A stretch of DNA of 64,000 nucleotides from a virus: IMG/VR virus record IMGVR_UViG_3300033146_005439, positions 47,383-111,382 of that record, one strand, 5' to 3'. The translations under genes were made by a program, and so were the position numbers. The notes beneath the pieces are model-generated. The model saw nothing but the letters and a program-made list of their open reading frames with translations, was not told where the DNA came from and made no database searches. Positions 2,980 through 53,600 of the stretch are shown piece after piece; position 1 is the stretch's first letter, and every line of letters starts with the position of its first letter.

Positions 2980-5900
2980 TCCTCATCTTCCTCTTCTGTA
3001 GGTTGTTCTTCTTCATACTTATTATGCGCTATATAATAATGATCAGCACCAAAATAATCAGGATCTTTTACTATATATTGATTTTTAAATATATTGTAGT
3101 AACGCGTTAAAATACCAGCTGTATTATAAAATTCTCCAGATTGATTTGCTCTAACATATCTATATTCTATAGTACCTTCACCACAAACTATAGTTTCGTA
3201 AGGAGGAAAAACATACCATTCCCATAAATGACCGCCTGGATAAAATAAAGATTTAGCTTCCACAGGTATAAGAGTACCTGTATCATTATTTCTTAATGTA
3301 AAAGACCATTCAGGCACTCGAGTAACACCTACTCTTTTAAAAAAATTACCTAAAACATCTTTAAGACAAGAATCATATACTATAATACCACTAATAAGTT
3401 GACTAGTTTTATCATAAAGCTCTTTTTGCTTATTTTCAAGTTCTAAATAATCTCCTTCAACTATAACAAACTCATCTTTAATTTCTGATAAACTACGACT
3501 ATAAAACTTACTTATGGTTTTTAATTTATGTTTAGTAACTAAAGCTGCACCACTTATACCATAACGAGTGTCTACTTGTACAAGTGTACTTATTTCTTCT
3601 GGGTGTCTATGTAAAGTTCTATATATATCTGTCCCTTGAACAGGAAAATTTCCACAAGAACCTTTTGATACTTTAAATAAACGTTCATAAGTATTTAATT
3701 TAACATCTACATCCATATAAATACTTTCTCTTAAAGAAAAACCTATTAAATGTATAAATTCTCCTAAATAATTACTTTTATTATTTTCTTCATAATAATT
3801 ATTTAAATTCCTTATATAAATAGGATCTATACTTAAAACAAGTTTTACATAAGAAATGCCATATTTAGCTTCTTCAAAGGTCAATTTATGACGCAATTGA
3901 AAATCTTTAATCGTAAAATCTAAAGTATCTTCGGAAAAAGTTTGCATTATATACTCTTTTTCTACATCTTGACCATTTATACCAAAATACAATCTTATAT
4001 TAGGTATAGCAAACCACTTATCAAAACCCAAAGCATCCGTAAATTTACCGTAATTAAAACTTAAATTCAAATACTCTATTAATTTAGGTAGTTTAAAAGT
4101 AATCAATATAGTTAAAGAAGTTAATAAACTCGCTTGTTTATATAGTAGGTCTAAAGGTATAGAACCTGGTATATCTATTAAATTATCCATAGATGAAAAC
4201 ATAGATTCTGGGTCATCAGTTGGTAAATTTAAATTAACTAAATAATCATCAATAACAAATACTTGTTTAGGTATACCAGTGTCTAATAAGTCTCTCTTTA
4301 TATGTATAGCTAGGCCTCTATTAAAAAAGTATTCTTTTTCTTCACCCATATTATTAAAGTAACCTATGGTACGTCTTTCTTTTCTAGCTAATTCCTCTAA
4401 TTCTTCTGTGGAGTCTTTTGATTCTTTTTTTTCATATAAAACCCTACCTGCTTTATATTCAGCAATATTATTAGGCATAGACAATGTATATACACCATTT
4501 AACCAATCTATACCAGAACATAACTTATAATAATGAATATCTTCTTCTATATTAGTAATATCAGAAAAAACAATACCATCTGGAACATCACTAGGATCTT
4601 CTACTATATTAAAATCAGAGTCATATAATAAAGCAGGCCCTTCATCTAAGTAAAAAGCATAATAATATAATTTTGTTTGCTCTTCCTCATTTTCTAAAAC
4701 ACCTATTCTAAAACTAATAGTATGTAGCCCTTCAGTAGGTACGCGTCGTCCTTCCCTTAATCTATAGTCATAACCATATTCAGGATAATTAATATCTAAA
4801 AAAGGTAAATAATCATAAATTAGTTCATCTAAAGTATCATTTAAAAAAGATTCTTCAAATAATTCTGTACGATCCTGCTCTATAATCACCTCTAAAGATT
4901 TCCACTCCTGTCTCCAAGCATGCATAATTGATTCATGTGGTAAAGCTGCATTAGGACTTGCAACATTTAAAGGTTTATAAGTTACATAACCATTTACTCT
5001 TTTTAAACCTTCTAAAGTTTTCTTATTATATTCTGGAACACTCTGTGGATAAGTTATACCAGCTATAGTATGATGATCATAAAAAACATCATTGTATCTT
5101 AATGACTCTTCTACAAATACCTCATCTAAATTATGGCTATCTACATTTGTACCTAATAAAATGCCTAATTGATTAATATAACTTGATATATTATCTTCAT
5201 TAAAATATTTTTTATATTGATAATCTTCTGCCGCAAAATCTAAACTTGTTAAAGCATAATTTTGTGGAACAGGCATCCATTTATCTCCTAAAAATGAAAA
5301 TATAGTATCACCAATAGTTTGATTATAGTAATAATTAAAATTACCTTCACTTCTAAAAGATATTAATTGGTCTCTATAAGTATCACCAAAAGGTGGCATA
5401 TTTTCACTAGAACATTGTTGCATATTATATAAATTTTCACCTTCTAAATGCGTTACCATACGAGCAGTACCAGAAAACCAAGCATCACTAGTACGTGTAC
5501 CATTTATAAAAGTATAATCACAGGAACAATCATTAAAAGATAAATGTGTAAATAGTACTCTTCCTAAATTATCTTCAGGCCCTAACATGCGCATATCAAA
5601 TCTATTATGTTCCCAATGATCATAACATTTTTTAGGTACCTGTCCTGGCTCAGTTTCATCATCTTCATAATCTTCAGCTGTACATTCCCATAATTCCATA
5701 ACACCTAAGTCACCACCACCTTGTATGGCTAAACTAGTTTGCTCGTATTTAGCAAAATCTTTACAAGAAACATAAGGATACCACATCCAATAATCTATAT
5801 GACAAGAAGGTGGCGGATAATAAGTATGATCACCACAAGGAGGTGCACTACCTTGAATATCCGTTCTATAATATATTTTAGATGCTTGAACTACATTACA

Positions 5901-24235: not shown

Positions 24236-27200
24236 TATATAAACCCCCCAATGCAGATACAGAATAAACATGTGTTAATATACGATTTAATTTAGCTTCT
24301 TGTTCCATAAAACGTGTATTCATTTCTTGAGAAAGACCTGATTTATCCGAACGAAGAACATTTAAATCAGAAATTAAGTCATTTATTTGTTTTTCTAAAT
24401 AGGCAGTATCTAAAGTATGTTTTTCTTGTATATCTGATAATACTGCTATACTAGAGGTATCTTCTATCTTAGTATTTAACATAGTTATATCTTCTGTATG
24501 CCTTACCTTTAAATCAGTTATTTGATTACTTAAATTATCTAACACAGTAGCTAATTGATCATTTTTTTCCGCACCTACTGCTGCACCAACACCTTCTAAG
24601 TTAAGGGAGGTTAATTTATTAACAGCCGCCTCAAAAGAAGATGTATCCACCTTTATAGTTGCCTCAGGTAAATCTACAGGTACTTTAACTCCTGTAACAT
24701 CTACACCAATTTTAGCTTCACCTACATCAACTGAAACTTTCGCATCATTAACATCCACAGGAACTTTAGCATCACCTACATCAACCTTAACTGTAGCATC
24801 ACTTACATCAACAGGCACTTTTGTATCAGAAACATCCACTTTAAATTCTACAGATTTTAATTCTTCTATAGCTTTATTTAATTCACCAATATTATCAATT
24901 GTTATAGAAGTAGTTGGTATATTTAAACTTTTACTATCCAATTCATCAGATAAAGCTAAACCTCCATTCTTAAAATTTTTAGAAACAACCAGTTCCCCTT
25001 TTTCTAAGAAATAATTACCTGTAGAGTTAATCATACCTCCAGTATGCTTATGTCCTTTTACAAAACCGCCTAAAAGATGCTTCTTTAAAAAAGCTTCAGG
25101 TGAATAATCTTTAGTAATAATATTCATAAAAGCATTTTCCTCAGTGCCCGCTTTTATTACAGAAGATTTACTAGAAATACCTGGCGTTTTAAAATAAGAG
25201 GAGCCTATAAAAGAACTAAACTCTTTTCTATCTACATAAAGTTTTCCTGTTTTAGTATCTTTATAAATAGAACCATCTTTAATACGTTGATTTATACCTG
25301 CTGAATCAATGCCTATGTGCTTTAAATAAGAAACGCTTACTGGAAAATACCTTCTATTTCTTCCCCCTGATAAGTCAAAAGTATCTCTTTTTTCAGCTAC
25401 ATTTTTAAACACTGTACCTGCTAATTTATCTTCAAATAAATAACGCATATTAGCAAAAAGATTACTTTTTTCAACTACGTCAGAAGTATTCTTATATTGA
25501 GACATCATGCCTTGTAAAGTCTTAGTACCTTCAACTAAAGATTTCATCATAAGTGCTTTAGTTTTTGGATTCTTTACATCTGCCCAATTCTTAATATTAG
25601 CTACATCAGTATCCCCAAATACAGCAATATTCATATTACCTTTATTAGCTTCTATAAATTTAGTTAACTTAGCTTCATCACCACCAAAACGTAACAATGA
25701 GTCTATATCTTTAAAAAGTTTTCCAGATTTAGTTGTAACATCATACTTAGTATTTTTAGCTCTACTAGGCATAGCTTCTACATCGGCAGAAGCTTTCCCA
25801 AAAATATCTATACCTCCGGACATCTTATACTTATTTAAGTCGTCTTTCCTTAAAGCTTCATAATCAGGACGAGCAGCAGATAATTGTCTCGATCTCAAAA
25901 TTCTACGAGCTTTCATTTCTTTTTTCTGCTGATCAAAAACATTAGCTCTATTAGCTACATGCATATCATAAGAATTAGTATAATAACCTAAATAATTATC
26001 TTTTATCATAGGTGATGCGTTATTTACTTTAACACCGCCACGTAAACCTGTATTACCTACCATTTTTAATAAAGTAGCATCACTTATAGTTTTAAAACCA
26101 GCTTTAGTTATACGTTTTCTTTGACTGTTTAAATCCATAAAACTAGGTGCTGGTGCAAACATTGTTCTATTTGTAGCTCTTGTTACGTCTTCACCACGAT
26201 ATTTCTTTTTATTTCTATAATAATTATCTATTTTATTAGCATCTATACCTTGAGATTTAAAATATTCTGAGATAGTCTGTAACTCTGGTAAAACCATTTC
26301 TTCCCAAGCTCCTTTACTATTCAATTTTTGTATCCCAGGACCAAATAAATTGGTATAAACATGCTTTTTATTTTTTATAGAACCACCTAAAGCGAACTTA
26401 TAAAAGTCTTTTGTTGCATCACCTACATAAGGAACTCCTTTAGGTACTTGTCTATTTATTTTAAATTCTTTTTGAACATTCTTATTTGTTAAAATCTTAA
26501 CAAACATCTTTTTTATTTCATTAGGTGTTTGTGCAGAATACATAGGTTCTTTAATACCTGCTAAATCATGTAGTCTAAATAATTCTGCTAAAGGTTCGTC
26601 CGAAAGTTTAAGTTCATCTGCGCCCATACTTCTATAATTTTTTAAACTTTCCTTAGCATATTCCGTAGCATATTTATCTTTTAAAGCTAAATTTCTCCAG
26701 TATTTATGAAGATCAGGAGCATCTTCTAAAAATTTACGAGAAGCTACATGACCTATTTCATGCACCATAGTAGCTCTTAAAAGTTTATCTTGATCTTGAG
26801 CTATACTACGCATATGACCAGAAAGAACTTTTACATTAGGATTATAAATATTACCCGCAGCTATATCTACTTTAGAACGCCCAGTACGTAAATCTTTATA
26901 AGCTCTGCCTAAGTTACCTTTCTTTTTATTTATAGCACTTAAAGCTGATACATCTAAATCAACATCACCTAAAATATCTTTATACTTTGACATAACAGAC
27001 GATACTGTTTTAGTATAACCAGGTAAAACATCTGCGGGTAATCCTGATGCTCTAGCCATTAAAGAAGCTATAGAACTGCCTCCAGATTTAACATTTGTAC
27101 CAATAGCTCCTATCTCATTAGACAAAGGATTAAAGCCCTTTAAACGAGAAGCTACACCCCCAGATAGAGCTGTTCCAGCTAAAGCACTTAAAATACCTGA

Positions 27201-30200
27201 AGTTACTCCTAAACCACCTTTTTTAATATCCCCCATAAAACTAGTTTTAACACTAGCACCTATTTCCTTCAATTGTTCAATATTAAGATTAGAAACAAAA
27301 CTACCAACACCTTTAGCCATAGAAACACCTTTAGCTAAAGTGGTTTTCATACCTTTCTGTGCTTGATATGTTGAAATATTCTCTATAGTCTTAAGAGGGT
27401 CTAAAGCTAAAGTTTTACCTACTCTAGCACCTAGTTCTAAAGTAGCAGCACCAGCTTGACCTAAAATATTATGAGTTCCTTTTAGTCTATAATCTTCTAA
27501 AGATTGTATTCCTTTACCAGCTTGCGTAGATAGCCAATTAAAAACACCACCACCAGAAGCGTAGCCTTTACCTTGATTCAACTTTCTAGCAGCAGTAACA
27601 CCACCTATAGCTTTAACTTCATCAGGTGTTAAAAGTAATTCACCATTACTAACATTTACAGGAACACCTCCCTTAGCAAAATTATTTAAAGAAGTTTTAG
27701 CCTTATTAGCATATTTAGATTGTATAATAAAAGAACCTTCTGGCACACGCATACTGATACTATCAGAGGTACCTGTTCCTGGACCCTTTATAGTGGTTCC
27801 TATAGTACCACCTAAAGCTTTTTCTTCAGAAGTTAACTTCTTAAAATAACGAGCTGGTGAAAAAGGCATAGTTTTAGAACTAAAAGGTATACTACCAGGA
27901 AGAACATGTTGAAATAAGGTTTTTAATTTGTCGCCAAAAGATTTTAATTCATCTTCCGGAAAAAATTTAGTTGAATCTATACCTAAAGTACTTAGAGTAT
28001 CTTTTGCCTGTTCCTTACCTCCAGACATAACTTCTAATATCTTAGCCAAAATAAGTGTTTGAGAATCTAAAGCATTAACTACAGGTGTATTAGCATTTTT
28101 AAAATAATCAGCATATTTAGTTTCATCACCACCAAAAGCTTTATTAATTAAACCTGTCTTTATATCTTCTAAAATAGTCATGTCAGGTTTTTGAGCTACA
28201 GCATTATTACGTGTATTTTCACCAGCCTGTTTAATCATATCATATAACTTAGAAGCCTGTTGCCCAAAATAACCTCGTTGCTCTTCATTAAAATTATAAT
28301 TAGGATTATTAGCAAAAGAAGACAACTTATCAGCAAATTCTTTTATAGGAGCAAAATTAGTTCTTGTTATATCTGAAATTTGTTGTAATTTTTCAGACTT
28401 CTTATAAGCAGCTTTTTCAGAAGGTATTAAATTAAGTTGAGTTAAAATATCAGAACGTTGAGTCCCTTTAGAAGTTCTTAATTGTTCCATTAAATTTGCT
28501 CTTTTTATATCAAACTGATTGGATGCGCCTAAAGTAAGTTGAACACCCGCTTTAGATGCCTTGTATTGAGCATAAGGATCAATAAATTGAGGAGCAAAAG
28601 AAGAAGAACCTCCATACATAGATTCTAAAGAACGTTTAGCTTCAAAACTACCATACTTCAAACCAGATAAAGAATCTGTAGCCTGCGAAATACCTTGTTC
28701 TAATTGAAGCATAGCAGCAGACAAACTTTTAAAACCATTTAAAGTTAAAGAAATGGAAACTAATTCTTTTTTCAATTTATTTAAAACATTATCAGTTTCT
28801 TTTGCAGATTTGGATAAAAGTTCAAGTTCAAGTCTAACCTGTTTTTGCACTACTGATTCTGAAGTTGAAAACCAACCTTTATTACTAGGTAAAGCATTAT
28901 ACTCCTGAGTCTTTAAAGCTAACTGTTTAGCTATACTAGAACGTTCAGCTAACTTAGCTTCATATAAAAATTGCCTATCTTTATAAGAACGCATTAAATT
29001 TTTAGCTTTAGCTCCTCCAGCCAAACCCATAAATTGTTCAACATTTAAATCATTAATATTATTAGGAATTAATTGTAAACCTGAAGGAGTACCACGTAAA
29101 TTACCATTAAATCCTTGATTTTGTAAAGAATTTAAATCATCTAATCTTTGTGACATTAATTCTGCTGTCATATCTGTAGCAGAACTAAAACGATTCAAGG
29201 CTTGTTCTGCTAAAAGTGATGCTTTTAATAAAGCTCCGCCATGGGCTAGTTGAGATTTAACCAATTTAGCTAATTTATCAGATTCTTTTTTAATTAAGGT
29301 ATCCCATTTTTTCTGTTCACCTGAATTAACAGCTTGAGATCTATTAGATACCATAGCATTAATTCTACTTTGTGCATCTATTATAAGTCTATCTAAAGAT
29401 TTATAAGCAGTTAAAGCTTTTGTTGTATCTGTAGGAGATTTAAAAAAAGAACTCGTTTTTTCAACTAAAGTTTTAGGCTCTTTACGACCTTCTAATAACT
29501 GCATCAACTGGAACTTATCTAAACCTCGCATAGATGTTTCACCTAAAGAAATATTAGTAGAAGGTACACTCATACCAGCATAAATACCTTTACCTATTTT
29601 TAAAGAATCTTGTATATCTTTAGCAAAATTAGTATTTTTTATATCTCTTTCTATAGTTTCTAATTGAATCTTAAATTTCTCTGCTAATTCTAATTTAGTT
29701 AATTCTGCTTTTAATTTTTTAACATCTTCTGTAGTATCATCAAAAGTAGTTTCAAGATTCTTTTTTAATTTTTCAGTATCTTTTACAGCTTTTTTATAAG
29801 CCTCTTCAGAATCCAATATAGTAGATTCTTTTACAGTAGATTGATTACCACCAACTTTAGTACTATTAACCGTCTGTTTATGTAATTCATCGTAAACTTG
29901 TTGTGCTGCAACCGAATTTTCTGAAATAATGGCACGTAACTTAGCAGCTTCTACATCAGCCCCTTGTTTTAAATCTGCTGCTCTAACTTTTTGAGTATCC
30001 TTTTCTGCTACATAACGTGCTAAAGTGGAAGCTGTTGCTGCAGTAGCTATTTGAGCCACTTTATTATAATCTATAGGATCTACAGATACAGTAGGACCTT
30101 TAACTTCTCCCCCTGCAGCAAAACTACCAATAATACCACCGTGAGCTAAAGTATCTAATTGACCTTTTTGTAATTTAAGTAACTTGTCCCTACCTATAGC

Positions 30201-33200
30201 CTTAGCCATAGTAGGTGGTATAATTAACTCACCATTACTAACTCGTATAGTGGCAGTTTTGCCAGAAGAACCTGTATTATTAGTAGCATAACTAGATTTA
30301 GCAATCAATGCTTTTGCTTTATTAGCATATTTAGAAGGTATTACAAAAGAACCTTCAGGCACATCTTGCAAAAGTATAGAATCAGAAGTACCTGTGCCAG
30401 GCCCTTTAACAACACCTCCTTGAGCAAAAGATTGCACGTAGCCTCCAAAAGCTTTATTATCTTTTTTAGTAGCCATCTTATCAACAGCTTCTTTCATTTT
30501 ATCAGCAGCTTCATTCATCTTGTCCGAAGCTTTTTCCATACCAGGTTTAATATAGTCTTCCCTAACAGATTTAGGTTTAGTAGCACCTGCAACTTCTTTA
30601 ATCCCTAAAGATTCTTCTGCAAAATCTTTCATAAAAGTTGATGAAGCTTTTTTCAAACCTCTAAAAGCAAAAAATTCTTTAACTTTACCAAATATACCTT
30701 CGGATTCTGATACAGTTTTAGCAAAATCTTTTAAAGCTTGTCCATATTTCTTAAAACTTTCGGGTAGTTCTTCACCAGTTAAACCTGTTTGCATTTTAGC
30801 TGCAGCATAAGTCCCTATAGCTCCTCCAACTGCTCCGGAACGCATAGACCATTTATCACTAAGGCCCATTTTACGCGCAAATAAAGTTGCTGCACCAGTA
30901 CCTGCAGACATACCTTGTAAAGAACCATAAAAACGAGCTTTTTTATACTCTTGAGCTTTTTGAGCTAATAACTCTTCTTGACGTTTTCCATACTCTCCTG
31001 ATAGTTTATATTTCTTACCTTCGGGTGTAATAGTAGAAGATACTACTTCACCTGCCTTTAAAGCGCGTTCTGATAATTTTTTTAATTCTTGATCAATAGC
31101 TTCTATCTTTTTACTAGTATAATTTCTTTTATATGTAGCAAATACTGCTGTTCCTGCAGCTAAACCGGCCATATTTTTAGAATTAAGTAAAGAACTCTCT
31201 GCTACCTTAGTTTTATTCTCTTTTTGTAGAGCTTCTAAAGTGGCTACTTGTTTATCAAACTCCGGAGTACCTCCCTTACTTCTTAAACCAAACCATTTAC
31301 GTTCATCTGGCATTTTATTACGTAATTCACCTAATAACGTATTAGCATTCATACCGGCAAACGCTCTACTATACATTTCTTTACTAGAATATGATCCTGG
31401 ACCACCAACACTTTTATTGTCTATCATCTTAGCAGCGCCAGCCAAACCTTCTCTAGAAATGAGTCGTTTAGTCAATAAATCTAAAGCTCTATTAGATTTA
31501 ATTAACATCTCAGAATCACCTGTTTTTGCAGCGGTATCTCTTATTTTGGCTACTCTATCTAAAGCGGATACTATTTTACCACTTTCTGTAACAAAGCCCG
31601 GTAATAAAGCAGAAACTATATCATTAGGTGTAAGCATTAAATCATCTAATAAAGTAGAAAGATTACGTACTTCACCTTGTTTATCAAAACGCTCTATTAA
31701 TTTGTCTAATCTATCTACGGTATTAGCTGTATTTTCAGCAGTTTTTGTAGTATCTACTTTTAATTCTTTTAATTCATTACCTGGCCCTGCTACTTCAGTT
31801 AAATACTTCTGAAAATCTTCAGGTTTAACAGCTGTTCCAAAACCTTTAGATACCTTTCTAATACTATCCAAAGCTACTTTAGTTTTATCTATAGCGTAAA
31901 TATTATTTGCTGTACCTTCACGTTTAGCTTCTAAAACCTTTAATTGTTTGGCCATAGCCTCAAACTTAGGATTTTTAATAAGCAATCTTTGCTGAGCAGT
32001 TAATTTAGTTTTATCTTGTATGCCTAAATCTAAATTAGCTAACTCTTTACTTTTTCCTGACATTAAACCAGCAGTTTCTCTAGTTAATTTTAAACGTGAT
32101 TCTGTAACAGCAACATTCTCAGCAGTAGCTCTACTATTAGCTTCCATAGCTTTAGTTAAATCTACAAAAGCAGCTCTATATTGCATTATAATTTGATTAT
32201 TCTTCAAAACATTCTGAAGTTGTACAATCTGATCATATAAACCAGTAGTCATTTTTATAGATTTAGCGTCTATACCATCTAACTTCATTTTTTGAAGACG
32301 TTCTAATAAGAAACGATACTCTTCCATAGGTTTAGCATAATATTTCTTAAAATCAGCTGCCCAACCCTTTTGAAAAGGTGACTTACCAAAAGATTTTTCT
32401 AAAGGATTATAACCTTTTGCACCTTGTAAAATAGTAGAAGTACTTATTTCACTAAAAAAACGTTCTCCTAGATTAAAATTACGCTTAAAATCTTTTGGTG
32501 AAATACCTCGTAATCCAGCCCCCGCTCCTGCCATAAATTCATTTAAAGCACCTATTCTATCAGATAAATCTTTTTCTATTTGTCTAACAGGTAATACAGA
32601 ATCAACGATAGCTTGCATATTACTATCAAACTTATGTGTTTCTACTTTTAAAGTTTTAGTGTTAAAGTAAGTAGCTACCCAATCATAAGTTCCATCAATA
32701 GTCTTTTTATATTCTACTATAGCTTGACGACCTGCCATATTAAATTTCTTAGCTGCATCATCCATAAAAGTTACAATATCACCACTTAACACTTTACCTT
32801 GACGCTTAGCAATACCAGCACTTTCAACATTAGCTGTAGTTAATTCTTTAGTAACATCTAATAAACCAGATTTAGTAGGATAAACACGTTTCATTACTTC
32901 TTGACCTAAAACATCTTGCCAAGAAGCTTTACCTTTCATAGCACCTACTTGAAATTTTGGTTCTATTTTAAGAGCCATCTCATAACCTTTTTGTAGTTCA
33001 GGACTACTTAAAATTCTTGAAATTTCATCAGTAGGTAAACCTTTTAGTGACATACTACTTAAAGTTTTTCTAAAACCTTCATAAGAACCCTTAAGTTTAT
33101 CACTTAATTTTGTTACTTTCTCTTGTAATTTAGAAATATCTTTATCATAAATATCACTTAAAGAATATTTATTTTTCTGTGACATCATATAATTAAGTTC

Positions 33201-36200
33201 TTTTACTGCCTCTTTTAAAGCCTTGGCTGGTGTTACATTTATACCTTTTGATAATAAACCACCAATAGCAGGAACCTCTTTAGCTAAAGCTTTTAATTCA
33301 TATTTCCATTTCTCTGAACCACCCGTAGCAGTCATATCTTTTATATATTTAGAAGCAATACTTACATCAGTTTTAGCCATTTCCCGTAATTTTGATTTTT
33401 CTAAAACAGAAAATAAATTTTCAAAATCTCCAGAAGCTTTTAATACAGCATTACCTAGTTCATCATAACCAGCTACTAAAGAGTTATTTACTTTAGCTAA
33501 ATCATTAGCCATCTTTGTAGCTTCCTGTTGTTTATCCACCATTTCAAGTAGAGGACTTCTATAAGTTCCTAAACGTTTAGATTCTTTTTGGGCTGCTGGA
33601 GACATACTTTTAATTATGTCTTGATAACCTTTTTTAAAAGTAGAATAACCATGAGCTACATTACGTAATGTTTTTAATTGATCTTCTTGTGAACGTTTTA
33701 AACCATACATAGATTTTTCAAAAGCTTCTGCAGATTGCATAGAAGCTATAAACTCTTTACTTAAAGATTTAAAAGCAGGAAGTAAAGTCATAATAGTTAA
33801 ACCTAAAGGTGCTATAGACTCAACTAAACCTGAATTCTTTCCTGCCCATTCTTTAAATAAATCGCCTCCGGCTCCTAATTTTTTGCTAAAAGCATCTACA
33901 AACATACCTGCAGCAGAAGCTCCTAAACCAACAAATTCACCGGCAACAGCCGTAGTTGCTCCAGCTAGTTTACCTAAACTCTTAAAACCGTATTTTTTAA
34001 ATAATTCTTTAACTCCTTTAGCAGAACCATAAGTTCCTGCAGCACGAAGACCTATATCTTTCCAGGTAGTATCTTCACCCTTATCTTTAACGCCAGCAGA
34101 ACTTGCCCCAGACAATGCAGTTGAAGTAAAACTTAAAAAATTACCAATTTTCTTTAAAGTTTTTCCTACAAAACCTGTGGCACTTGCAGTACCTTTTGCT
34201 GTGGCTGCAACATAAGAATTAAACTTCTTACCTAAATTAGCTATTAAATAAGTGGACTTGCCTAAAGCAGAATTAAAATCAGATAATTGTTTTCCTCCAG
34301 CAACACCACTTACTACTCCTGGAGTTACAGTTTTTAAACCTCTGACTGAAGTAGTGCCTGCTCCAGCTCCTAAAATTTCAAAAGCCGCTGTTTTTAATTC
34401 ATCTTTAATAGAACCAAATAAACCTCCAGCAACAGGTGTTCCTGTAGATAAAGTATCAGCTATTGAACTAATAATTTTATCGCCTTTAGATAAGAAAACT
34501 AAGAAACCTAACATTGCGGCGCCGGCAGCTTTTATAGAATCAGGGATACCTGCTAATGTTTCAGCTATAGTCTTTACTGCCTTTAAACCAAATTTAAATA
34601 CAGGAAAAGCTACTTTTCCCACAGAAGTTTGTAATTCTACCATAGCAGCTTTAGTTTGCTCTAACTGTTTAGCATAAGTTTTCATTAACTCTTGATTTTT
34701 ACGCTCAGCTGAACCTTTTGAATCTACACTATGCCTAATAGCCTCTAAAGCTTGTCCCCAATTATCCATTAAAACTAATAAAGCATTATATTGACGAGTA
34801 CCACCTATGGCTTGAGCGATATTCATCTTTTGTGCTTGAGTTAAATCTTTCCATTTACCGGCTAATTCATCTAAAATATTAAAACCACCTTTTAACTCAC
34901 CAGAACCTGTAATTGTAGAAATACCTAATTTACCTAACTCTTTAGGACCTTTCTCTGAAGTTAATCTACGCATAATAAAACGCATAGAAGTACCAACTTC
35001 TTTACCAGACTGTCTTGTAGTAGAACCTATAGCAGCAACAATACCATTTAATTGATCAAAAGTAAATCCAGCATTTTTTGCTGCAGAAGCCGCCTTCTTA
35101 ATAGCATCCGCCATATCACCAGCAGTAATAGCATGTTTAGATTCTACCTCTGACCAAGCATCTAAAAAATGCATAGAAGTTTTACCTTCTTTATTAAATA
35201 CTTTCATAGCTGCAGTTAAAGCTTCTGTAGCATCTTTAGCATTCAAAGTAGTAACATTAGCTGCTAAAGTAGCTGTTTGTGTTCTTTCTAGTATTTGAGG
35301 TTCAGGTAAACCTTGTTGTGCAAATACTTTCATACCTTGAAGAACATCTGTTACAGCTACTCCATATTGTTTAGCCATATTAATAGCTGATTTTTGTAAA
35401 TTATCAAAATCACTAGTTAAAGGATTCATAACCATTCTTAAACTAGCCATTTGTACTTCTATATCAGCTAATACGCCCACAGACTCTTTTAATTTATTAA
35501 AACCTCCATAAACTATGGTAGAAGCAGCTCCCCACATAACAGCTCTTTTAATAGCTCCTTGAATACCTCTATGAGAACCTGCTAAAGATTCATTCATATC
35601 AATTTGCTTCGTTGTAAATTTACCTATAGTATTACCAGTTGCATCTACAACTTCTTTATATTTTGTAAAAGCTGTCTGAACATTTTTTACAGCATTACCA
35701 GCTTGATCAAATACTTTTGCTTTATAAATGTAAGTCTCTCCTACTTTAGCACCACCTTTTGCTGCAGGAGTCTTCATGTAATCCCTTATTTTAGCTATAT
35801 TACGTTTATTTAAAGCTTCTTGTGTTTTTGGATCTAACCATTTAGGAACACTAACAACACCAGTTTCTCCCCAAGCTCCTGGACCTTTTTTAGTGGTTTG
35901 ACGACCTAAATCCATATAAGTAAGCTTATTTTCAGCATCCTTTAACATTTTAATAGTCTGTTCTAAATTCTTACGTTCTACAGACAAAGGAGAATCTGAA
36001 ACATTATACTGCTTAAATAATTCTAAAGCATCCCTTAAACGTGTTATCTTTTGAGCACCACCTTTAAAATCCCAAGCCTCTGCTATTTCAGGTCCTAAAC
36101 GTTCTAATAATTTACCATCTTCCATTAATTTTATAAGTTCATCATCCATAGAAGTTAAAGACTTGATAGCAAAACGAGCTTTTTCCATAGGAGAAGCCAT

Positions 36201-39200
36201 TGCATCACGTTTATCACCAGAAAGATCACCAACTATTTTTTTATAAGTTTCATATAAATCGGAATCACCTTCTATATCTACAGCAGCCTTGGACTCTATC
36301 TCTGAAGGAGACATGTAAACACCAGCGGCTTTAGCTATATCTGGTTGTGACCATACTTTATTTCTAGTGTATATATCACTACGTTTACCCACACCTTTTT
36401 TAACATGTGCTTGAACATCACCAACAGCCTTTGTAAAATCAGTATAAGCTAAACTTATTTGTCTAGAATCTTCAGTCTTCTTTACATTTTCTAAATACTG
36501 TTTTGCTTGCTCTGCTTTTTTAATTAAGTATTCTAATTGAGCGTCTTTAAAAAGTTTCCAAGCATTAGCTAATTTAGCACCATCTAATTCAGGGTTTTCT
36601 CTAGATTTATCTAATATTTGAACATCTTTTATATACTTAAAAAAATCAGAAGCCTTAACATTACCAGTTTTAGCCCCTTCTATCATATCTTGTGCTTGAC
36701 GAGGTAATTCTTTCGCAGCTTTTTCTAAATCAACTCCATGAGAAGCTTGCATAGTTTTAGCTGCAGCACGCAATAATTTTATATTCTTTAATTCTGCTAC
36801 AGGTCCCGAACCACTATAAGGTGTTAAATTTAAAGTTTGTGGTTTTTGATATTCAGGTTTTGTAAATTTATTAATTTGATCTTGAGAAATACCTGCAGAA
36901 CCAGTACCTTTAGACTTATAAAAAGCACCCTTATTTCTATAAGCTTCATAGTAAGAACGGCCACCTTTTAATAATTCTTGAATTTCACTTTTAGAAGGTC
37001 TGCCAGGAACTTGTGCACCCTTAGCTTTATAAAGAGATTCTTCCTTAGCTATTTTTGATAAAGTCTCTAAACTCCCTGTTTTAGCAAATGAAATAGGTTT
37101 ACCAGAAGCAATTTCTTTTTGTATAGCTTCTCTAGCAACCTTTATGGCTTTCATATCTTTTTTAAATAAATTCTCATCAAACTTAAATCTAACTACTACA
37201 GGCTTTTCATTTTTTGGATCTCCCATCCTATCATAAAAATGAACTTCTGCTTGCTGCACATCATCACCAGCTTCCTGTAAAGCCTTCATATAAAAATTAA
37301 GTTGTGAACGAACTTCTTCTATCTTATAACGAGCATAACTAGATGACTTTTTATTGCCTAATTTACCTAAAACAGCTCCTACATCTGCAGATCCAGCGCC
37401 TTCAACAGCTTTACCTAAAGTATCTTTTAATTTACCACTAACTGTTTTAATATCAACTGCTGTAGTCATCTTACCTTCAGCATTAGTTAATATAGCATCC
37501 ACATGCCCTGTAATAGCACCCACAGCATCATCAGCATAACTAACAAATTTTTCTATTATAGGTGTTCCTTGACCTTTAATTTTATTAGAAGCTTCTACCA
37601 TACGATCTTCAATCATCTCATGTAAAGCAGTACCAATCAAAGAGGTAGAATCTAATAAATCCTTATCAACATCTTTCATTGCTGTTCCCAGCATAGTTTC
37701 TTTAATACTAGCTACTTGTTTTTCAAAATCAGGGCCTTTATAATTCTCTTTAAAACTAAATTTGCCGCCGCCATGAAAAGCACTAGCTCTATACATAGTT
37801 TCAAAAGAAGCATCTTTTAATTCATTAGCACCACCAGAAGCTCTAGCAGCAATGTCTTTCAATTTATTTATATAAGTAGTTTGATCACTTCCTGCACTTA
37901 CAGTATTTGCAGCAGCTTTAACCATAGAAAAAGTATTAGCAAATTTAGTAAATACATCAGAATTAACACTAACTAAATGAACAGGAACTATACCAGAACC
38001 CATAGAGTACTTACCTACACTAGGTTCTGTGGGTGTAGGAGGTAAAACACCTCCAGATTTTGATTGAGCACCACTTAAACCCTTGGCTCTATTATATTTA
38101 GCCTCTGCAAGCTTAGCTCTAGTTTCCTGTATTTGATTCCTTCTTGGTAATTCTGTAGTACTAGTAGAAGTAATATCTTTTGCTTGCACTGATAAAGCTG
38201 TATTTAAACGCTTTATTCTTTCTGTCAAAAGAGCTTTAGTTTCTATAAAAGAATCATAAGCTTTATAAAAAGAAATTAATTCTTCCTCTGACATACCACT
38301 TTTAGGTGGGGCAGGCTTATTAGTTAATTTACCTATAACAGATTTACTCTGAAGAATTTGCGTTCTTTTATTAACACTTATAGGAGCTATTCTTAAAGCA
38401 GTTTCTAAAGAATCTAGTTCATCAATAAAAGCCCTCAAAGATTGTACAGATTTAGCACTGTCAAAAGTGATATTTTCTATAGCTAACCCCATAGCTTCTA
38501 ATTTTTTAGAATCTATAGAAGAATTAACTCTTTGTAAATCTTTAGAAAAACTACCAGTCATTAAAGAATAAGCACCTCCTCTAGTATCTTTAGTTGGGTG
38601 CTTAATATCGGAAGCAAATGTTTCCATTAAACCACTTTTTAAACGGCCTGAAGCTGCTCCTGTTCTATATTTATATAAAGGATCAAAAGGTTCTGTAACC
38701 ATCTTTGACATATTAATACCTTTACCCTTTTCATATAAAGAAGTTAAATACTTTTTAGCTCCGGCTTCACCTAAGGGTTCTCCTGTCTTCTCATCTTTAG
38801 TTTGAGATAAATAAGCTATAGCTTGTTTTTCTATCGATTTTTGTAAACTACGTAAAAAACCCTCAAAACCCATAGCTTTTACCATAGCATTAACTAATTC
38901 AGGTCTATTTAGCTGCTCAGCATTTTGAATATTCATATAAGGTTCTTGAGCAGCTTTTCTTAAATCTTCTGTTTTATACCTACCTAAATTTAATTTAAGT
39001 GCTTTATCATTCTCTTCCATAAAATCTTTTAAACCACCATAATTCCCCCCAGCTTTAATTTTACCAATTAAAACCTCTAAAGCTTTGGGACCTTTAGTTA
39101 AAAGAGAAGATAACTCCCCGGCTACAGGAGTTTCACCAGCATGTTTAACATCCATACCTTTTTGCACAGCAAATCTATATAACTCATTTAACTGTGTCTG

Positions 39201-42200
39201 TCTTTCTCTTAATAAATTAGTCCTATCTAATTTATTACCTGAACGAGCATTATTTATTTCCCCAGAACCAAAACCTATTTGAGCCTCATAGGAACGCATC
39301 AATTTTGTTAAACTCTCAACATCAGTACCTGTATGTAGTTTAAATAACTGAGCATTAACTGCATTATCGAATTTTAAATTAGATAAAGATTCCTTTAAAT
39401 AACCTTCTACTAAACCAGCCATAGGTTTATCTTGTTCTGTTAATTTATCTAGGGCTTCAGCTGCTTTTTGTGCAGCTTCATCTAAAGTTTCTACACCTTC
39501 TATAGATTTAAAAGAAGCTCCCGCTTTAGTAAACATTTCAGTCATCAAAGTATTTACAGCATCTGGACCAGTTAAATTATCAGTATCTACTTTCTTACTA
39601 GCTAAAATATTTATTTTTTCTTTATTAGACAAATAACTTAAATTTTCCGTATAAAAAGGTTTTTGTAGATAATCAAAACCATGTTCTTTTGGAAATTTTT
39701 TAGTATAAGCTTTTGCCATAAATGCTAAAGGTGCTGCACCTTGAGTAGGCTGCATAGCATCATAAGTAAAAACGTCTCTAAAACGAGCTGCAGTGCTATC
39801 AACTTCTTTCGTTAAAAGATCAAAATGACGTTTTATTTCTTGTCTAGCTTCTTTTATGGTAGCAGTATGTATTTCTATTTGATCACCATCATAATCCAAT
39901 TTTTGAGCTTGAGCAATGTATTTCGGTAAAGCATCTGATAAAGCTTTACTTAAAGCATCAATGTATTTTGTAAGCTCATCTGCTTTTTGATTAGTTTCTG
40001 GAGTACCTATAGTTCTAAGTTCTTCTCGTTTAGTAGAAGCCTGTTCCATACGAGCCTTAATACTCTTAAATAAAGCATCAAATTTATTTACATCCATTTC
40101 AGGAACGCCAGGTACTAATAAAGAATCTTCGTTTAAACCTTTAGTTGTTTTTAATAACTTAGCTTTGTAAGGTTGAACAGAAGAAGTTCCTGTAAAAGGA
40201 AATCTTACAGACTCTATATAAGGAGCCAACTCTTTATCAATATAATCCCTAACTTCTGGTTGGGCTGAACCTTCAGCTAAAGACTTCTCTAGTTTTTCAA
40301 CATAAGTTAATAAAGATGTTAAAGTACTTTTTACATCAGAAGATTTTGTAACTTGACCTTTAGTATCAAATTTTTTGGTATAAGAAACCGATAATTTATC
40401 AGCTAATTTCTTTGGAATACCCAATTCATTTTGCTTTAATACTGGAAGTCCTATCTTTTTATAAGAAGCTACTTTCTTTGCATGTTCAGCCCCTAAGCTC
40501 TTTACTAAAGAAACGTCTTTAGTAAAATCAGCTTGACCTAAATCCTTAATTACTCCAGCATATTGTTTATTAATATTATCTAACATAGAACCAAATTTCT
40601 TCATATCAGCTGTTTTATCTACCATAGCATTAGTAGCTTTAGCTAATACAGCAGGAATTTTCTTAGTAAAAAAAGTTTGTGCTACAGCCCCACTTTTTCC
40701 TACAAGTTCTTGTTCTAAAGATTTAAAATATTCTTGTTTAGCTTTTTCTAATTGGGCTAATTTCTTAGTAAGAATTTGGTTCTCATCTTTTTTAAATAAA
40801 GCTACTTCATTAAAATCCATACCCATAGAAGCCTTTATATCTTCTAAAACTTTAAATTGTGCATTAGTACCTTTTTTAGAAGATACTATAGAAGGACCTG
40901 AGGAACCCTTACCTGGTTGATAATCACCTAAAAGTAAAGTTTTTAATTCTGCGGCTGTTCTATCAAGAGGGCCTAATTTATTTTTAGCTGATATTTTATT
41001 ATTTACAAAAGCCTCTTTTAAAGCTGCGACATACTCTTTTTGAGATGCTGTACCTACTCCCTGTAACCCAGCAGCATTATATTTTTTAATACTTTCAGGT
41101 AAAAGACCTTTTTCCGAAGAAGCATTCTGCTCTGCTACTTTGAATAATTGTTCTATATAAGTTTTCTTAGAAGACTCATCAGTATTTTTTAATTTACTTT
41201 GAAGATTACCCCCAAAATATTTTAAAATAGTCTTTTTATCATTCTCATTTAATAAAGATAAGTCTTTATTTTGATAAGCACTTAAAGACCTAGCAGAAGT
41301 TAATACATTTTGAAGTGCACGACCAGTACCTGTTATACCATAACCACCGGCTACATTAGGATCTGCGAAAGGCTGTCTAGCTATAGAACTAGGAACATAA
41401 AAATCTTCTTTAACATTACGATTTGCTGTAGGTAATTTAGTTTTAAAAGCAGTAGGAAATTTATCTGTATCAAAAACGGACCCTAACATTGAATTAGCAG
41501 CACCTTTTTCAAAAGTGCCAAAAGAGCCTTCAAAAGGTTTAATATCTTTTAAACTTACCGTATTTAGTTCTTTTAAAAATTGTTCGCCATAATCTTTATT
41601 AGAACTTATTAGATAAGTTAAAATGTTTTCATAGGCTTCAGCTTGTTTTGCATCATAAGCAGCGTTTATCTGCTTTAACATGTTTGAATCCGGCCCAAAA
41701 ATTGATTGATAAGCAGCATAAGCAGGTAGATTTAATTTTAAACCTTTTGCTCCTGAGGCTATATCTCCTTTAGACCATTCTTGAAATTGTTTTGCATCCT
41801 CTATGATCTGAACAAATTTAGGACCCACTAAACTTTTATGTTTATTCCCTAACTCATCTATAACATCTACATAAAAACTAGAGTCACTTTCTAACTTAAC
41901 TAAAGCATCTATAAATTCTTTATTTTCTGCAGCTTTATCACCATACATCTTTTCTATAGCTTTACGTATAGCTGCTTCAGATTTACCAGTGCCTGCATAA
42001 CCTAATGTAGCAGCATAAGAGCTTAAAGTTCCTTTTTTAGATGTAGGACCTAACAACTTTTTATAATCAATTTTATCCTTTATTACAGTAGTACCAGTCT
42101 TACTAGTTGAAGCTAAATTACCTGTGATCATTTCTAAAGCTTCTGTTTGTAAACCACGTTTAGCTGCACCAAAAGAACTTATTCTTATATCTATAGGTTT

Positions 42201-46661: not shown

Positions 46662-47684
46662 TTATCTTCTTTTTGATACAGTGCGTTTTTTTATATCAGC
46701 ACGATCTTTAATTACTTGTGCCTCACGAGGTTTATCATATTCTATATCTTGATATAATTCATTAGACTGTGTAATAATAACCTCTTCTGCATCAAAAGCT
46801 GATAAAGGTCCCTTACCTTTAGCTTTATTACTACGTGCTATAGAAGCTTCATTACTTAATTCTTTATAATATTCCTCCATAAATTTATCTAATAATTCAT
46901 CATCTTCTATCACATCATCTGAAGGCCTTTGATCAGGCATCATATTATAAACATTGTCATAAAAATTAGACCAATAAACTAAATTTAATTGATCTGTAGT
47001 ATATTCAGAAGTTGCTCTATTAAACAAACATTCTGATGTTTTCATACTAGTTGTATATCTTATTCTCCATAAGGTGCTACGCGCTAAAAAACGTATTATA
47101 CTAGTATCTAAACCATTTAATAAAGTTATAAAAGTTGATAATGCTGTATTTTTTAATGTGGAAGGAGATGCCTGCATATAAGCAGTGTAAGTTGGCCATA
47201 ATAAATTACCAGTCATATCAAATAAACTAGCCCAACACATAAATTGGTTCTTTATCTCTTCAGCTTTAGATTCCGCCGACATCATTAATTTAGAATGTTT
47301 TTTATAAATAATAGCATCTATCTCTGATTGTAAATTAGCTATTACTATTTTTATTCTTTCTTGATTAGCCCGCACCTTTAAAGTTTTAGATAATAATACT
47401 TGTTGAGCTTCTAATTTACCACGTAGTTTATTTAAAGCATCTGTGTCTTCTTCAGTAAAAACACCTCTTTCCTCTAACAACTTTTCAAATTCTTGCAAAG
47501 GTAATAAACCTTCTTTTAATGCTTCTTGATAAGCATTATCATAAATTAAATTTGCTTGTTGTTTTACCTCTAATCTAGGGTAAGTTACTACTATAAAATC
47601 TTGCCTATCTTCTACAAATAAATATTCTTTCCCAGAAGAAATTCTACTAAGATAATTATCTATCTCTTCATGACTTAAAATCAT
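46662..47684 (-). CDS. Tail assembly chaperone-like protein, long paralog
   Basis: 340 aa, directly upstream of the TMP; N-terminal ~195 aa align by eye with the 246-aa neighbour. Confidence 0.6.
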   Translation of the reverse strand: MILSHEEIDNYLSRISSGKEYLFVEDRQDFIVVTYPRLEVKQQANLIYDNAYQEALKEGLLPLQEFEKLLEERGVFTEEDTDALNKLRGKLEAQQVLLSKTLKVRANQERIKIVIANLQSEIDAIIYKKHSKLMMSAESKAEEIKNQFMCWASLFDMTGNLLWPTYTAYMQASPSTLKNTALSTFITLLNGLDTSIIRFLARSTLWRIRYTTSMKTSECLFNRATSEYTTDQLNLVYWSNFYDNVYNMMPDQRPSDDVIEDDELLDKFMEEYYKELSNEASIARSNKAKGKGPLSAFDAEEVIITQSNELYQDIEYDKPREAQVIKDRADIKKRTVSKRR

Positions 47685-48879: not shown

Positions 48880-50331
48880 TTAATTATAAATATACTTTAT
48901 TTTTCCACAATCCCAAATTCTATTATAACCATTATTTAAACAATTTTGATACTCAGTTAAATTAGGATCATAATTAATAAATAACTTTTTTAATTTTTTA
49001 TGTTGAAAATTACGTTTATGTAGTAACTCAAACTGATTACTAAAATAATAATAACTAGGAGCTACTTCATGCACAAAATCAAAACCATTATTAATATATA
49101 CATTACCAGAAAAATACCTTTTATCTGCAAAAGTTATTATGGGTTTATTATTTCTTGACTTTAAAAAAAACTTAAAAAGTTTACTAAAAGAACCATACAC
49201 CAAAGTATGCTTTCTATTAACAAAACGTACTAAATTATAATAAGTATCATACTCGAACAAAACCATTAAAGACATCAAAATATCTTTATAAAAAAGACCT
49301 ATATATTTGCCTGGAGCAAATCCTTGTATGTGGTTAGCTTCTAAAAATTTTTTAGCTAATACAATAGGTACTTCTTGGATAGTGCATTGTCTAGAACCAA
49401 TTTTATATTTATAAATATTACATTGAGCTAACAACATAGACTCAAGTATAGCATATTTTAACAGATACTCTGGCTCAAAAATTGTAATTAATCTATAATC
49501 TTTATTACTACATTTAAAATATTTATCTTTATGATAATTCTTTGGTTGAGGATATCTATGTAAAGCTTGCTCTGAGTGCCAATACAAACCACAGTATTCT
49601 ATGGCTAAATTAAAATCAGGTAATACTAAGTCTAATTCATAGGGTTTTATTAAAGACCTGTCACTTTGTCTATACTTTATGTTATTATCCTTAAATAAGG
49701 AGGCTAACACATTTTCAGGTTTAAATATTTTAGTAGTACATCTAGGACAACCTTAGCCTCGCAAATGTTTGTCTGGTGATTGTTTAAACATACCGTGTTT
49801 AGGGCAACGGATACTTACGGGTAATTTACTTTTAATATAAATAGTATCCGAATAAATATACTTATTAGCATACACCTTATGTGCCAGCACAACGAAGTCT
49901 TCTGTTGATAAAGTATGTTTAAATGTATTTTTCTCTCTAGCACAAAGCGGGCATCCAGCGCCCCTTAAATGATTATTAGGGGTTTGTTTAAAAACACCAT
50001 GCTTAGAACAAATTATATCCACTTTAGTCATACAATTAATATAATTAACTTTATTATAATTATATTTATTACTATGTATTTTTTGAGCTTGTTGAATAAA
50101 AGTAGTGACATCTTTAGATTTATGATTAATATTTTTCAAACTACCACATATAGGACAACCTTGCCCCCTCATATGTGCATCAGGAGTTTGTAAAAAGATA
50201 CCATGTAGAGGACAAACTATTTCTACTTTAGTTTTTGTATTTATAAAAACTACCTTATCATAATTATAAAAATTAGAATGTTTAAGTATAGATCTTTTTA
50301 AAAAATCCGATTTAGTTAATTTCTTAGGCAT
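48880..50331 (-). pseudogene. Hef-like homing endonuclease gene interrupted by one in-frame TAA (49753-49755)
   Basis: The 192-aa and 276-aa ORFs are in the same frame; read-through gives HLRG*GCPRC, matching the upstream repeats HMRGQGCPIC and HLRGAGCPLC. Contains ELDLVLPDFNLAIEYCGLYWHS nuclease motif and a C-terminal WDCG (GNAT-like) domain. Confidence 0.8.
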
Positions 50332-52184: not shown

Positions 52185-53600
52185 TTATCTATATTTTTTT
52201 ACATATTTTAAATTACCGCAATCCCAAATAATGTTATAACCCTGACCTAATCTATATTCTTGCTCAGTTAATTTAGTATTAATAGAAATAAGTTGTTTTC
52301 TTAAATTATACCTATAAATACGTTTAGTGTTAGTAGTAAAGTACCAATAGTTTGGAACTGTAGCTTTATCATAATTAAAACCTAATACCTCATATAATTT
52401 ACCAGAAGACCATCTTAAATCAGCATAAGATATTAAATAATTACAAATATAATTCTTTTCAAAATACTTTAATAATTTAGAAGCTATACCTATAATACTA
52501 AAACATTGTTTAGAACAAAAACGATGTAATTCATAAGTATTATTATACTGCTTAGAATAACCTTTCACTAAAGAAGGCCTAGCAAAAGTCATAACAGCTA
52601 CTAGATAACCTTCATAAAAAGCCCCTAATTTTATAGAAGCTCCTGCACCATAACCTTGAAGATGATTTTCTTCACAAAAAAGTCTAGCAGTAGTAGTAGA
52701 TATTTCTTTGATAACACATTTTCTAGCATATAATTTAATTAATAAATTAGAATTAATTAAAGAAATTAATCTAGATTTACAAATATCCTTTTTAGTAAGC
52801 CATTCATCTTCAAAAATAGTTATTAAAGTAATATCTTTTTTTAAACAAGCATCATACTTATTCCTATGATAATATTTATCTTTACCATTTTTTACACTAT
52901 GCCAAAATAGTCCATTATATTCTATAGCTATCTTTAGCTCAGGCAAATAAATATCTAATTCCTTTGGTTCTATAATGGTTCTATCATTATAAATAATAGT
53001 ACTTTTATAAATACTTTCTATAAAAAACCTTAATTCTAATTCTGAACGTGAAATTCCAGTTAAAGAACATACAGGGCATCTAACATTCTTAGAATTAAAA
53101 TTATCCCAAGAAATTTTAAATAAATGATTATTAGGACAAACACATTCTAAAAGTTGTTTATTATTAAAATAAGTAGTTGTTAATAAAGAGTACCCTTCTT
53201 TTTTAAAAACCTCTTTTATTTCAATAATAGATTTCTTTTTTCTACCAGAACACTCTGGACAACGATAGCCAGTACTCCAATTATTCCAAGATATAGTAAA
53301 TGTATGATTATTAGGACATTGTACTTTTAATAGACTACTACTATTAATATAAGATGTACTAATTAAAGTATAACCTTCTTTTTCAAAAGATTGTGATACT
53401 TGTTCAAAAGTTAAAGGACTGTTTCCAGCACATTTAGCACATCTAATTCCTCTACGCCAATGATCCATACGCATGGAGCCCTTATGACCTTTTGGGCAAA
53501 GATATTTAAATTTTTTTGTTTTGAAATCATAAGATAAACAGGTATAATTATCTATTAAAAGTTCTTTATTAATTTTAGATATAGTAAGTCTAGGGGGCAT
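52185..53600 (-). mobile_element. Free-standing Hef-like homing endonuclease gene
   Basis: 471 aa; three CPxxH...CxxC zinc-ribbon repeats; ELDIYLPELKIAIEYNGLFWHS...ITIFEDEW (Vsr-like); C-terminal ISYADLRWSSG...WDCG domain. Confidence 0.8.

Follow-up and report, generated by a model that had tools for sequence, protein, structure and literature searches.

The cargo known from tape-measure proteins includes lytic domains and, as recognized since 2024, an RNA polymerase. In gp96 of the Thermus phage P23-45, a virion RNA polymerase is fused to the tape measure, and its authors proposed that transcription takes place at the tape-measure pore during DNA entry; their account of gp96 mentions no nuclease (PMC10770324). 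In the ejection-protein literature that we searched, we found no natural nuclease delivered by the virion. The nearest case is the virion-associated head-completion nuclease with a restriction endonuclease fold described for group 2 (T4-like) jumbo phages and T4 gp4 (PMC7824862, section 3.4.5). Here we describe a stretch of 64,000 nucleotides (the window) from the IMG/VR virus record IMGVR_UViG_3300033146_005439 (positions 47,383–111,382), in which a single giant open reading frame (ORF) combines an RNA-polymerase-like region, a predicted PD-(D/E)xK nuclease domain and a tape-measure core. The initial annotation of this stretch knew of no such fusion, and our literature search likewise found no paper describing a combination of two-barrel polymerase, nuclease and tape measure.

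The initial annotation placed a Cas4/RecB-like nuclease between the polymerase and the tape-measure core and described its motifs GTALH, E, GHVD, DIK and QLNFY as complete and in order. We located all of these motifs, the numbering given for D3048 and K3065 is exact, and the domain is indeed flanked by the DYDGD motif at aa 2249 and by the PhageMin_Tail match at aa 3749–3947. The modules and motifs of the giant protein are listed below in window coordinates, with residue numbers (aa, amino acids) of the protein.

24228–46640, minus strand: giant ORF with all modules inside, 7,470 aa, TTG start
37047–37880, minus strand: nuclease module as a unit, corresponding to the part deleted in nuclease-less relatives, aa 2921–3198 (envelope of the hidden Markov model, HMM)
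37116–37808, minus strand: PD-(D/E)xK catalytic core, aa 2945–3175 (from motifs, AlphaFold2 model and fold matches)
37620–37634, minus strand: GTALH, aa 3003–3007, ending in H3007
37551–37553, minus strand: E3030
37497–37499, minus strand: D3048, last residue of GHVD (aa 3045–3048)
37446–37454, minus strand: DIK, D3063–K3065 (aa 3063–3065)
37290–37304, minus strand: QLNFY, Q3113–Y3117 (aa 3113–3117)
39765–41600, minus strand: region resembling the largest subunit of RNA polymerase, aa 1681–2292 (VIA-align)
39882–39896, minus strand: DYDGD, aa 2249–2253
34800–35396, minus strand: tape-measure core, Pfam PhageMin_Tail PF10145, aa 3749–3947 (E 7.1e-32)
33768–34547, minus strand: two hydrophobic, predicted transmembrane-like segments, aa 4032–4051 and 4272–4291

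A start at TTG is plausible, since the N-terminal residues of the giant ORF fit the pattern conserved in its homologues, M-A-x-x-(Y/H)-N-(I/F)-N. Within the catalytic core, the motifs follow the order (S/R)-A-S-x-L, GTxxH, E, GxxD, DIKT, SQxNxY and a conserved FD/AR, the first of which (aa 2951–2955) is similar to the SxS motif found N-terminally in RecB/Cas4-type nucleases.

There is very little doubt that aa 2945–3175 represent a real PD-(D/E)xK nuclease domain of the RecB/Cas4/lambda-Exo clade. At the sequence level, the domain matched the PHROG families 298 (exonuclease, E 1.8e-5), 1674 (exonuclease, E 1.3e-3) and 1706 (Cas4-like, E 6.4e-5). Searches of the PDB with profiles of the homologues retrieved the Cas4 protein SSO0001 (4ic1; E 1.6e-4 and 7.6e-3), in an alignment that keeps GxxxH, E, GxxD and (D/E)xK in register. 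The nearest language-model clusters were made up of stand-alone viral PDDEXK_1/Cas_Cas4 nucleases of 204–257 aa. The domain had no Pfam match at E ≤0.1 (including PDDEXK_1 PF12705, Cas_Cas4 PF01930 and YqaJ PF09588), 12 homologues matched no Pfam nuclease family at E ≤0.05, and single-sequence phmmer against the PDB returned chance matches alone, to FtsZ and a Bcl-2-like protein.

The AlphaFold2 model of the domain was built from a 12-sequence alignment and reached a mean predicted local distance difference test score (pLDDT) of 79.6 and a predicted template modelling score of 0.79. Foldseek matched this model with a probability of 1.00 to lambda exonuclease (lambda Exo), Cas4 SSO0001, MGME1 and RecE. 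When the Foldseek candidates were aligned with VIA-align, the highest scores were obtained for Cas4 7mi5 (Z 12.3, 161 aligned residues, 4.0 Å) and LHK-Exo (Z 12.1), followed by SSO0001 (Z 11.8) and lambda Exo (Z 11.7, 193 aligned residues). A second VIA-align scan, independent of Foldseek, covered 48,161 representative chains, and its top 21 chains were all end-processing PD-(D/E)xK exonucleases (Z 7.0–11.7). These include the phage exonuclease 3k93 (Z 11.7), Cas4 4ic1 (Z 11.7), lambda Exo (Z 11.3), MGME1, Exo5, RecE and Dna2, with DXO/Rai1 and type II restriction enzymes trailing at Z 5–6. The Cas4/RecB-like fold proposed in the initial annotation is thus borne out by the Foldseek probability of 1.00 and VIA-align Z scores of 11–12 over 160–195 residues. 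On the predicted model, the Cas4 and lambda-Exo subfamilies are inseparable by structure, their scores being tied; the sequence leans towards Cas4, whereas the missing iron–sulphur (Fe–S) cysteines lean towards the lambda-Exo/MGME1 style. Within this well-known nuclease clade, the domain represents a new and divergent branch, and the architecture in which it is found is new as well.

Exhaustive searching of 1.84 billion cluster representatives with phmmer identified 29 proteins, and a word-indexed search with the polymerase region recovered 46 giant proteins of 4,271–7,998 aa. The catalytic residues singled out from the window's sequence proved to be conserved: H3007, E3030, D3048, D3063, K3065, Q3113 and Y3117 do not vary in any of 62 distinct domain sequences, among which overall identity to the window's copy drops to 26–30%. 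Judged from this conservation in sequence, the domain is very probably catalytically active. In every giant that possesses it, the domain lies ~670–830 aa past the DxDGD motif, and every carrier has the polymerase module before the domain and the tape-measure core after it. The clades seen with the polymerase region recur in the tree of the nuclease domain, a pattern consistent with a single ancient acquisition and vertical inheritance since then. Retention of the domain in homologous polymerase–tape-measure proteins is partial: 10 of the 46 giants lack it. P23-45 gp96 also lacks it (by hmmsearch), and BLASTP of gp96 against the window's giant gave nothing at E ≤0.01.

Neither the nuclease domain nor the polymerase region had a tblastn match in 50,697 deposited phage records. 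A search of IMG/VR for related loci returned none with the single domain as query and 8 with an alignment as query, and the remainder of the 111-kb contig yielded no paralogue with hmmsearch --max. A free-standing or split form of the domain was also sought, and phmmer together with a profile search among proteins of 89–497 aa gave giants or short pieces alone. The short pieces that were checked are collinear with the interiors of giants, and two new ones came from contigs of ~1 kb. A split or free-standing version of the family is therefore rejected for the databases searched.

The giant contains no cysteine in its 7,470 residues. The initial annotation had remarked on the missing Fe–S cysteines of the nuclease, and cysteine is in fact absent from the domain and from the whole protein, as against ~119 residues expected from the 1.6% cysteine content of the genome's other ORFs of ≥150 codons. 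Homologous giants contain 0–4 cysteines each, and P23-45 gp96, which is unrelated to the giant, has none in 5,002 residues; a cysteine ban may characterize very long ejected tape-measure proteins in general. The absence of cysteine is consistent with a protein that passes the tail and the envelope unfolded and refolds without a cluster. Given such a ban on the carrier protein, a Cas4-like domain located there cannot keep an Fe–S cluster.

The DxDGD motif, which lies upstream of the nuclease, occurs in 53 of the 55 giants longer than 4,000 aa. A 1,200-residue model of this region had a mean pLDDT of 65.7, and Foldseek found nothing for it at E ≤0.001. With VIA-align, aa 1681–2292 matched the first ~500 aa of beta', Rpb1, A190 and archaeal A' (Z 10.2–10.8, 250–280 residues, 15–16% identity), and largest subunits accounted for 49 of the top 50 matches. 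Pfam RNA_pol_Rpb1_2 matches the giant weakly (E 0.09), and a profile of the region reached no solved polymerase among the PDB sequences. The assignment of aa 1681–2292 as a polymerase, which draws on the predicted model, is supported but not proven. Downstream of the nuclease, PHROG tape-measure families match the giant with E values down to 3e-81. The two hydrophobic segments, identified by a Kyte–Doolittle scan (window 19, mean ≥1.5), lie C-terminal to the tape-measure core.

Tape-measure proteins exit the tail before the DNA does; a metal-dependent exonuclease module in this position would therefore be expected to be delivered into the cell together with the polymerase-like module, and it is probable that the nuclease is ejected with the tape measure. 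From general knowledge of tape-measure proteins and the P23-45 model, the hydrophobic segments would help to form a membrane channel. The N-terminal 4,000 residues, carrying both enzymes, would then reach the cytoplasmic side beside the first DNA to enter, and the nuclease would stay tethered where the entry pore opens into the cytoplasm, ~850–1,100 residues N-terminal of the two membrane segments predicted. With few tethered copies per virion, and with its close folds being end-dependent, the leading end of the phage genome would be the favoured substrate. We give a probability of about 0.4 to the reading that the nuclease acts on the incoming phage DNA end. Limited 5'-to-3' resection could leave a 3' single strand that gives the fused polymerase a template or access to a promoter; alternatively, the resected end may become unfit for RecBCD/AddAB-type enzymes. 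Carried to its full extent, this would amount to an entry-and-expression machine in which the tethered nuclease resects the end, the polymerase starts on the single strand and transcription helps to draw the genome in, a scheme that we regard as unlikely in its entirety. To our knowledge, nuclease-primed, transcription-coupled genome entry is undescribed for any phage. A precedent for the use of single strands is the crAss-like virion polymerase gp66, which works far better on single-stranded or denatured DNA than on duplex (bioRxiv 10.1101/2020.03.07.982082).

Several points weigh against an action on the incoming end. Resection of the phage's own leading end is risky. The polymerase module described here resembles cellular beta' and not gp66; a preference for single strands would be an analogy only. 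The contig (111,382 bp, 29% G+C, no terminal repeats) is probably incomplete. Only 12 sequences underlie the fold model, in which confidence is low for the first ~80 residues. The domain is also absent from 10 of the 46 giants recovered via the polymerase region, and these absences fall in at least three lineages, including the sister clade of the window's giant. Two conserved anchors are separated by a spacer of bimodal length, 579–806 aa with the domain and 302–392 aa without it. This difference equals the size of the domain, so that the nuclease-less linker corresponds to the two flanks alone. In two comparisons (P0042 versus P0041, and P0038 versus P0022), the domain was cleanly excised along with ~15–40 flanking residues on each side; P0038 and P0022, the latter a fragment, are 66% identical in the flank that follows. 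In a quickly computed maximum-likelihood tree of 53 rows (midpoint root, support by the Shimodaira–Hasegawa-like approximate likelihood ratio test only), the absences require five changes, at least three of them imposed by well-supported branches. P0016 and P0032 were omitted from this tree, as neither had a DxDGD pattern match by which its extraction could be anchored. Nothing replaces the domain at its position in nuclease-less giants, and segments unique to the latter are confined to the variable C-terminal third. The polymerase–tape-measure machine thus works without the nuclease, and an accessory or conflict role fits at least as well. Based on these losses and on the absence of the domain from P23-45 gp96, the nuclease would be a helpful add-on, not a requirement.

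A patchy distribution with at least three independent losses is typical of accessory conflict genes, and would suit a nuclease that is delivered in the same manner, possibly released by proteolysis, and acts in trans on host, plasmid, competing-phage or defence nucleic acids at the start of infection. One clade of relatives adds a DEDD-type RNase_T domain, which suggests that these giants accumulate nucleases as cargo. Modification might also allow the phage DNA to be spared, as the genome encodes a putative PurZ-like adenylosuccinate synthetase and glycosyltransferases. Such an attack would nevertheless have to be carried out by few copies per virion, each of them covalently joined to a protein in which membrane segments are predicted, and neither a cleavage site nor a release mechanism is known. 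In addition, the closest folds are end-dependent exonucleases and not endonucleases, whereas a circular chromosome has no ends. We therefore consider an action in trans somewhat unlikely. Another reading is a role in virion assembly or storage rather than after ejection. The domain would trim or hold the last-packaged DNA end at the point of contact between the tape-measure N-terminus and the head–tail connector, in the manner of the jumbo-phage head-completion nuclease. The N-terminal part of the tape measure adjoins the genome end in assembled siphovirus tails. A virion-associated nuclease with a restriction endonuclease fold and needed for packaging is described for group 2 jumbo phages and T4 gp4 (PMC7824862). 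However, relatives assemble without the domain, nothing at this locus ties it to terminase or portal, and a folded domain of ~30 kDa may not fit the tail lumen, all of which makes this role improbable.

The substrate could also be RNA, through decay of host mRNA as by the herpesvirus alkaline nucleases SOX and BGLF5, which have the same fold, or through processing of the 5' ends of the polymerase's transcripts as by DXO/Rai1. The polymerase module adjoins the domain, and the structural matches include Epstein–Barr virus BGLF5 and Kaposi's sarcoma-associated herpesvirus SOX (Z 7.6–8.3) as well as DXO/Rai1 (Z 5.3–6.4). These scores are well below those of the DNA exonucleases (Z 10–12), and the sequence-level matches are to Cas4 and phage DNA exonucleases only; we accordingly see little likelihood of an RNA substrate. 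Clean deletion of the domain leaves the rest of the protein intact, as might be expected if it were a relic devoid of catalytic activity, acting solely as a spacer or DNA-end-binding module. Invariance of seven catalytic-site residues in 62 distinct sequences at 26–50% identity would be unexpected in a dead enzyme, and we regard a relic as very improbable.

The genome encodes a second nuclease of the same superfamily outside the window. This protein, its surroundings and further features of the genome, of the giant and of a related giant are listed here (L-numbers denote stretches other than the window).

L012:8312–9466 (genome C1:28312–29466), minus strand, outside the window: stand-alone nuclease of 385 aa (P0069)
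L011:15728–18952, minus strand, outside the window: family A DNA polymerase split by an intein with a LAGLIDADG homing endonuclease
L011:8930–9922, minus strand, outside the window: short adenylosuccinate-synthetase-family protein of 331 aa (PF00709, E 3e-29; assigned at family level)
Window 48880–49710, 49753–50331 and 52185–53600, minus strand: three HNH-like ORFs (E down to 1.6e-110)
Window 26748–26762, minus strand: HExxH, a possible metallopeptidase, aa 6627–6631 (motif alone)
Window ~30380–30402 and ~27761–27783, within the minus-strand giant: the two copies of the KGPGTGTSDSI block
aa 307–415 of the giant at L009:1082–10081, near its N-terminus: RNase_T domain, also found in P0065 and P0067

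The stand-alone nuclease is a canonical member of Pfam PDDEXK_1 (E 8.8e-28) and has Cas4-type cysteines, one N-terminal and three C-terminal (C...CxxC...C). It adjoins RecA (L012:15257–16336), DnaB and primase in a replication/recombination module. It shares its superfamily and motif order (SxS, GxxxH, GxID, DYK, QLSMY) with the tape-measure domain, but the two have no BLAST similarity. Since a canonical nuclease stands beside RecA, ordinary recombination or replication already has a nuclease, and the one in the tape measure is additional to it and highly divergent. Also outside the window are genes for ribonucleotide reductase, the glycosyltransferases and the beta clamp. The three HNH/homing-endonuclease-like ORFs (PHROG 559, 3339 and 681) are clustered just upstream of the giant gene, and two of them resemble halves of one gene. 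We found no cas genes among the giant's neighbours scanned with PHROG and Pfam, and these neighbours gave no informative Pfam or PHROG matches as regards sheath or other tail-type markers.

In the C-terminal third of the giant, a block of ~35 residues, KGPGTGTSDSI...PEGSF(V/I)I...SKYANKAK, occurs twice, at aa 5413 and 6286, and a related block, G-G-P-x-D-x-V-P-A-x-L-S-x-G-E, is conserved across homologues. The HExxH region has no Pfam match. Among the relatives, the most divergent clade of giants carries the extra RNase_T domain (PF00929, E 8.1e-8) besides the PD-(D/E)xK domain. In another relative from IMG/VR, the giant gene contains two in-frame TAG codons (L003:5675–5677 and L003:6692–6694), and its reading frame shifts near L003:14233–14266; these interruptions suggest either TAG recoding or sequence errors in that contig.

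The fusion of polymerase and tape measure has already been published for P23-45 gp96, and what is new here is the nuclease on a polymerase-bearing tape measure. A conserved, apparently active DNA-end nuclease would extend the concept that the tape measure delivers the enzymes acting first in infection. Such a nuclease would offer a handle on access of the virion polymerase to its template, on how the first DNA end survives host exonucleases, and on cysteine avoidance. The family consists of dozens of metagenomic proteins of 7,000–8,000 residues, of which no cultured representative could be detected among the 50,697 deposited phage records searched, and its nuclease-bearing and nuclease-less sister lineages provide a ready natural comparison.

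In its overall architecture, the window's giant is comparable to gp96 (5,002 aa), which combines a tape measure, an N-terminal two-barrel polymerase with DxDGD, membrane segments and a metallopeptidase, and which sets the published precedent for enzymes delivered as tape-measure cargo. The polymerase module of gp96 is much smaller (aa 327–1124). As for the nuclease itself, Cas4 (SSO0001, 4ic1; and 7mi5 of Cas4–Cas1–Cas2) shares the RecB-type core and the motif order of the domain, and is both its best solved relative at the sequence level (E 1.6e-4) and the top structural match (Z 11.7–12.3). Unlike Cas4, the tape-measure domain has neither Fe–S cysteines nor a CRISPR context and is embedded in a structural protein of the virion. 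Nucleases of the lambda Exo/YqaJ types (3slp, 1avq, 3k93, LHK-Exo 3sz4 and RecE 3h4r) are cysteine-free and end-dependent, resemble the domain in fold, and tie with Cas4 in structural score (Z 11.1–12.1 over 178–195 aligned residues). Those enzymes are separate early proteins, each cooperating in recombination with a single-strand annealing protein, whereas the nuclease described here is a domain of a late structural protein.

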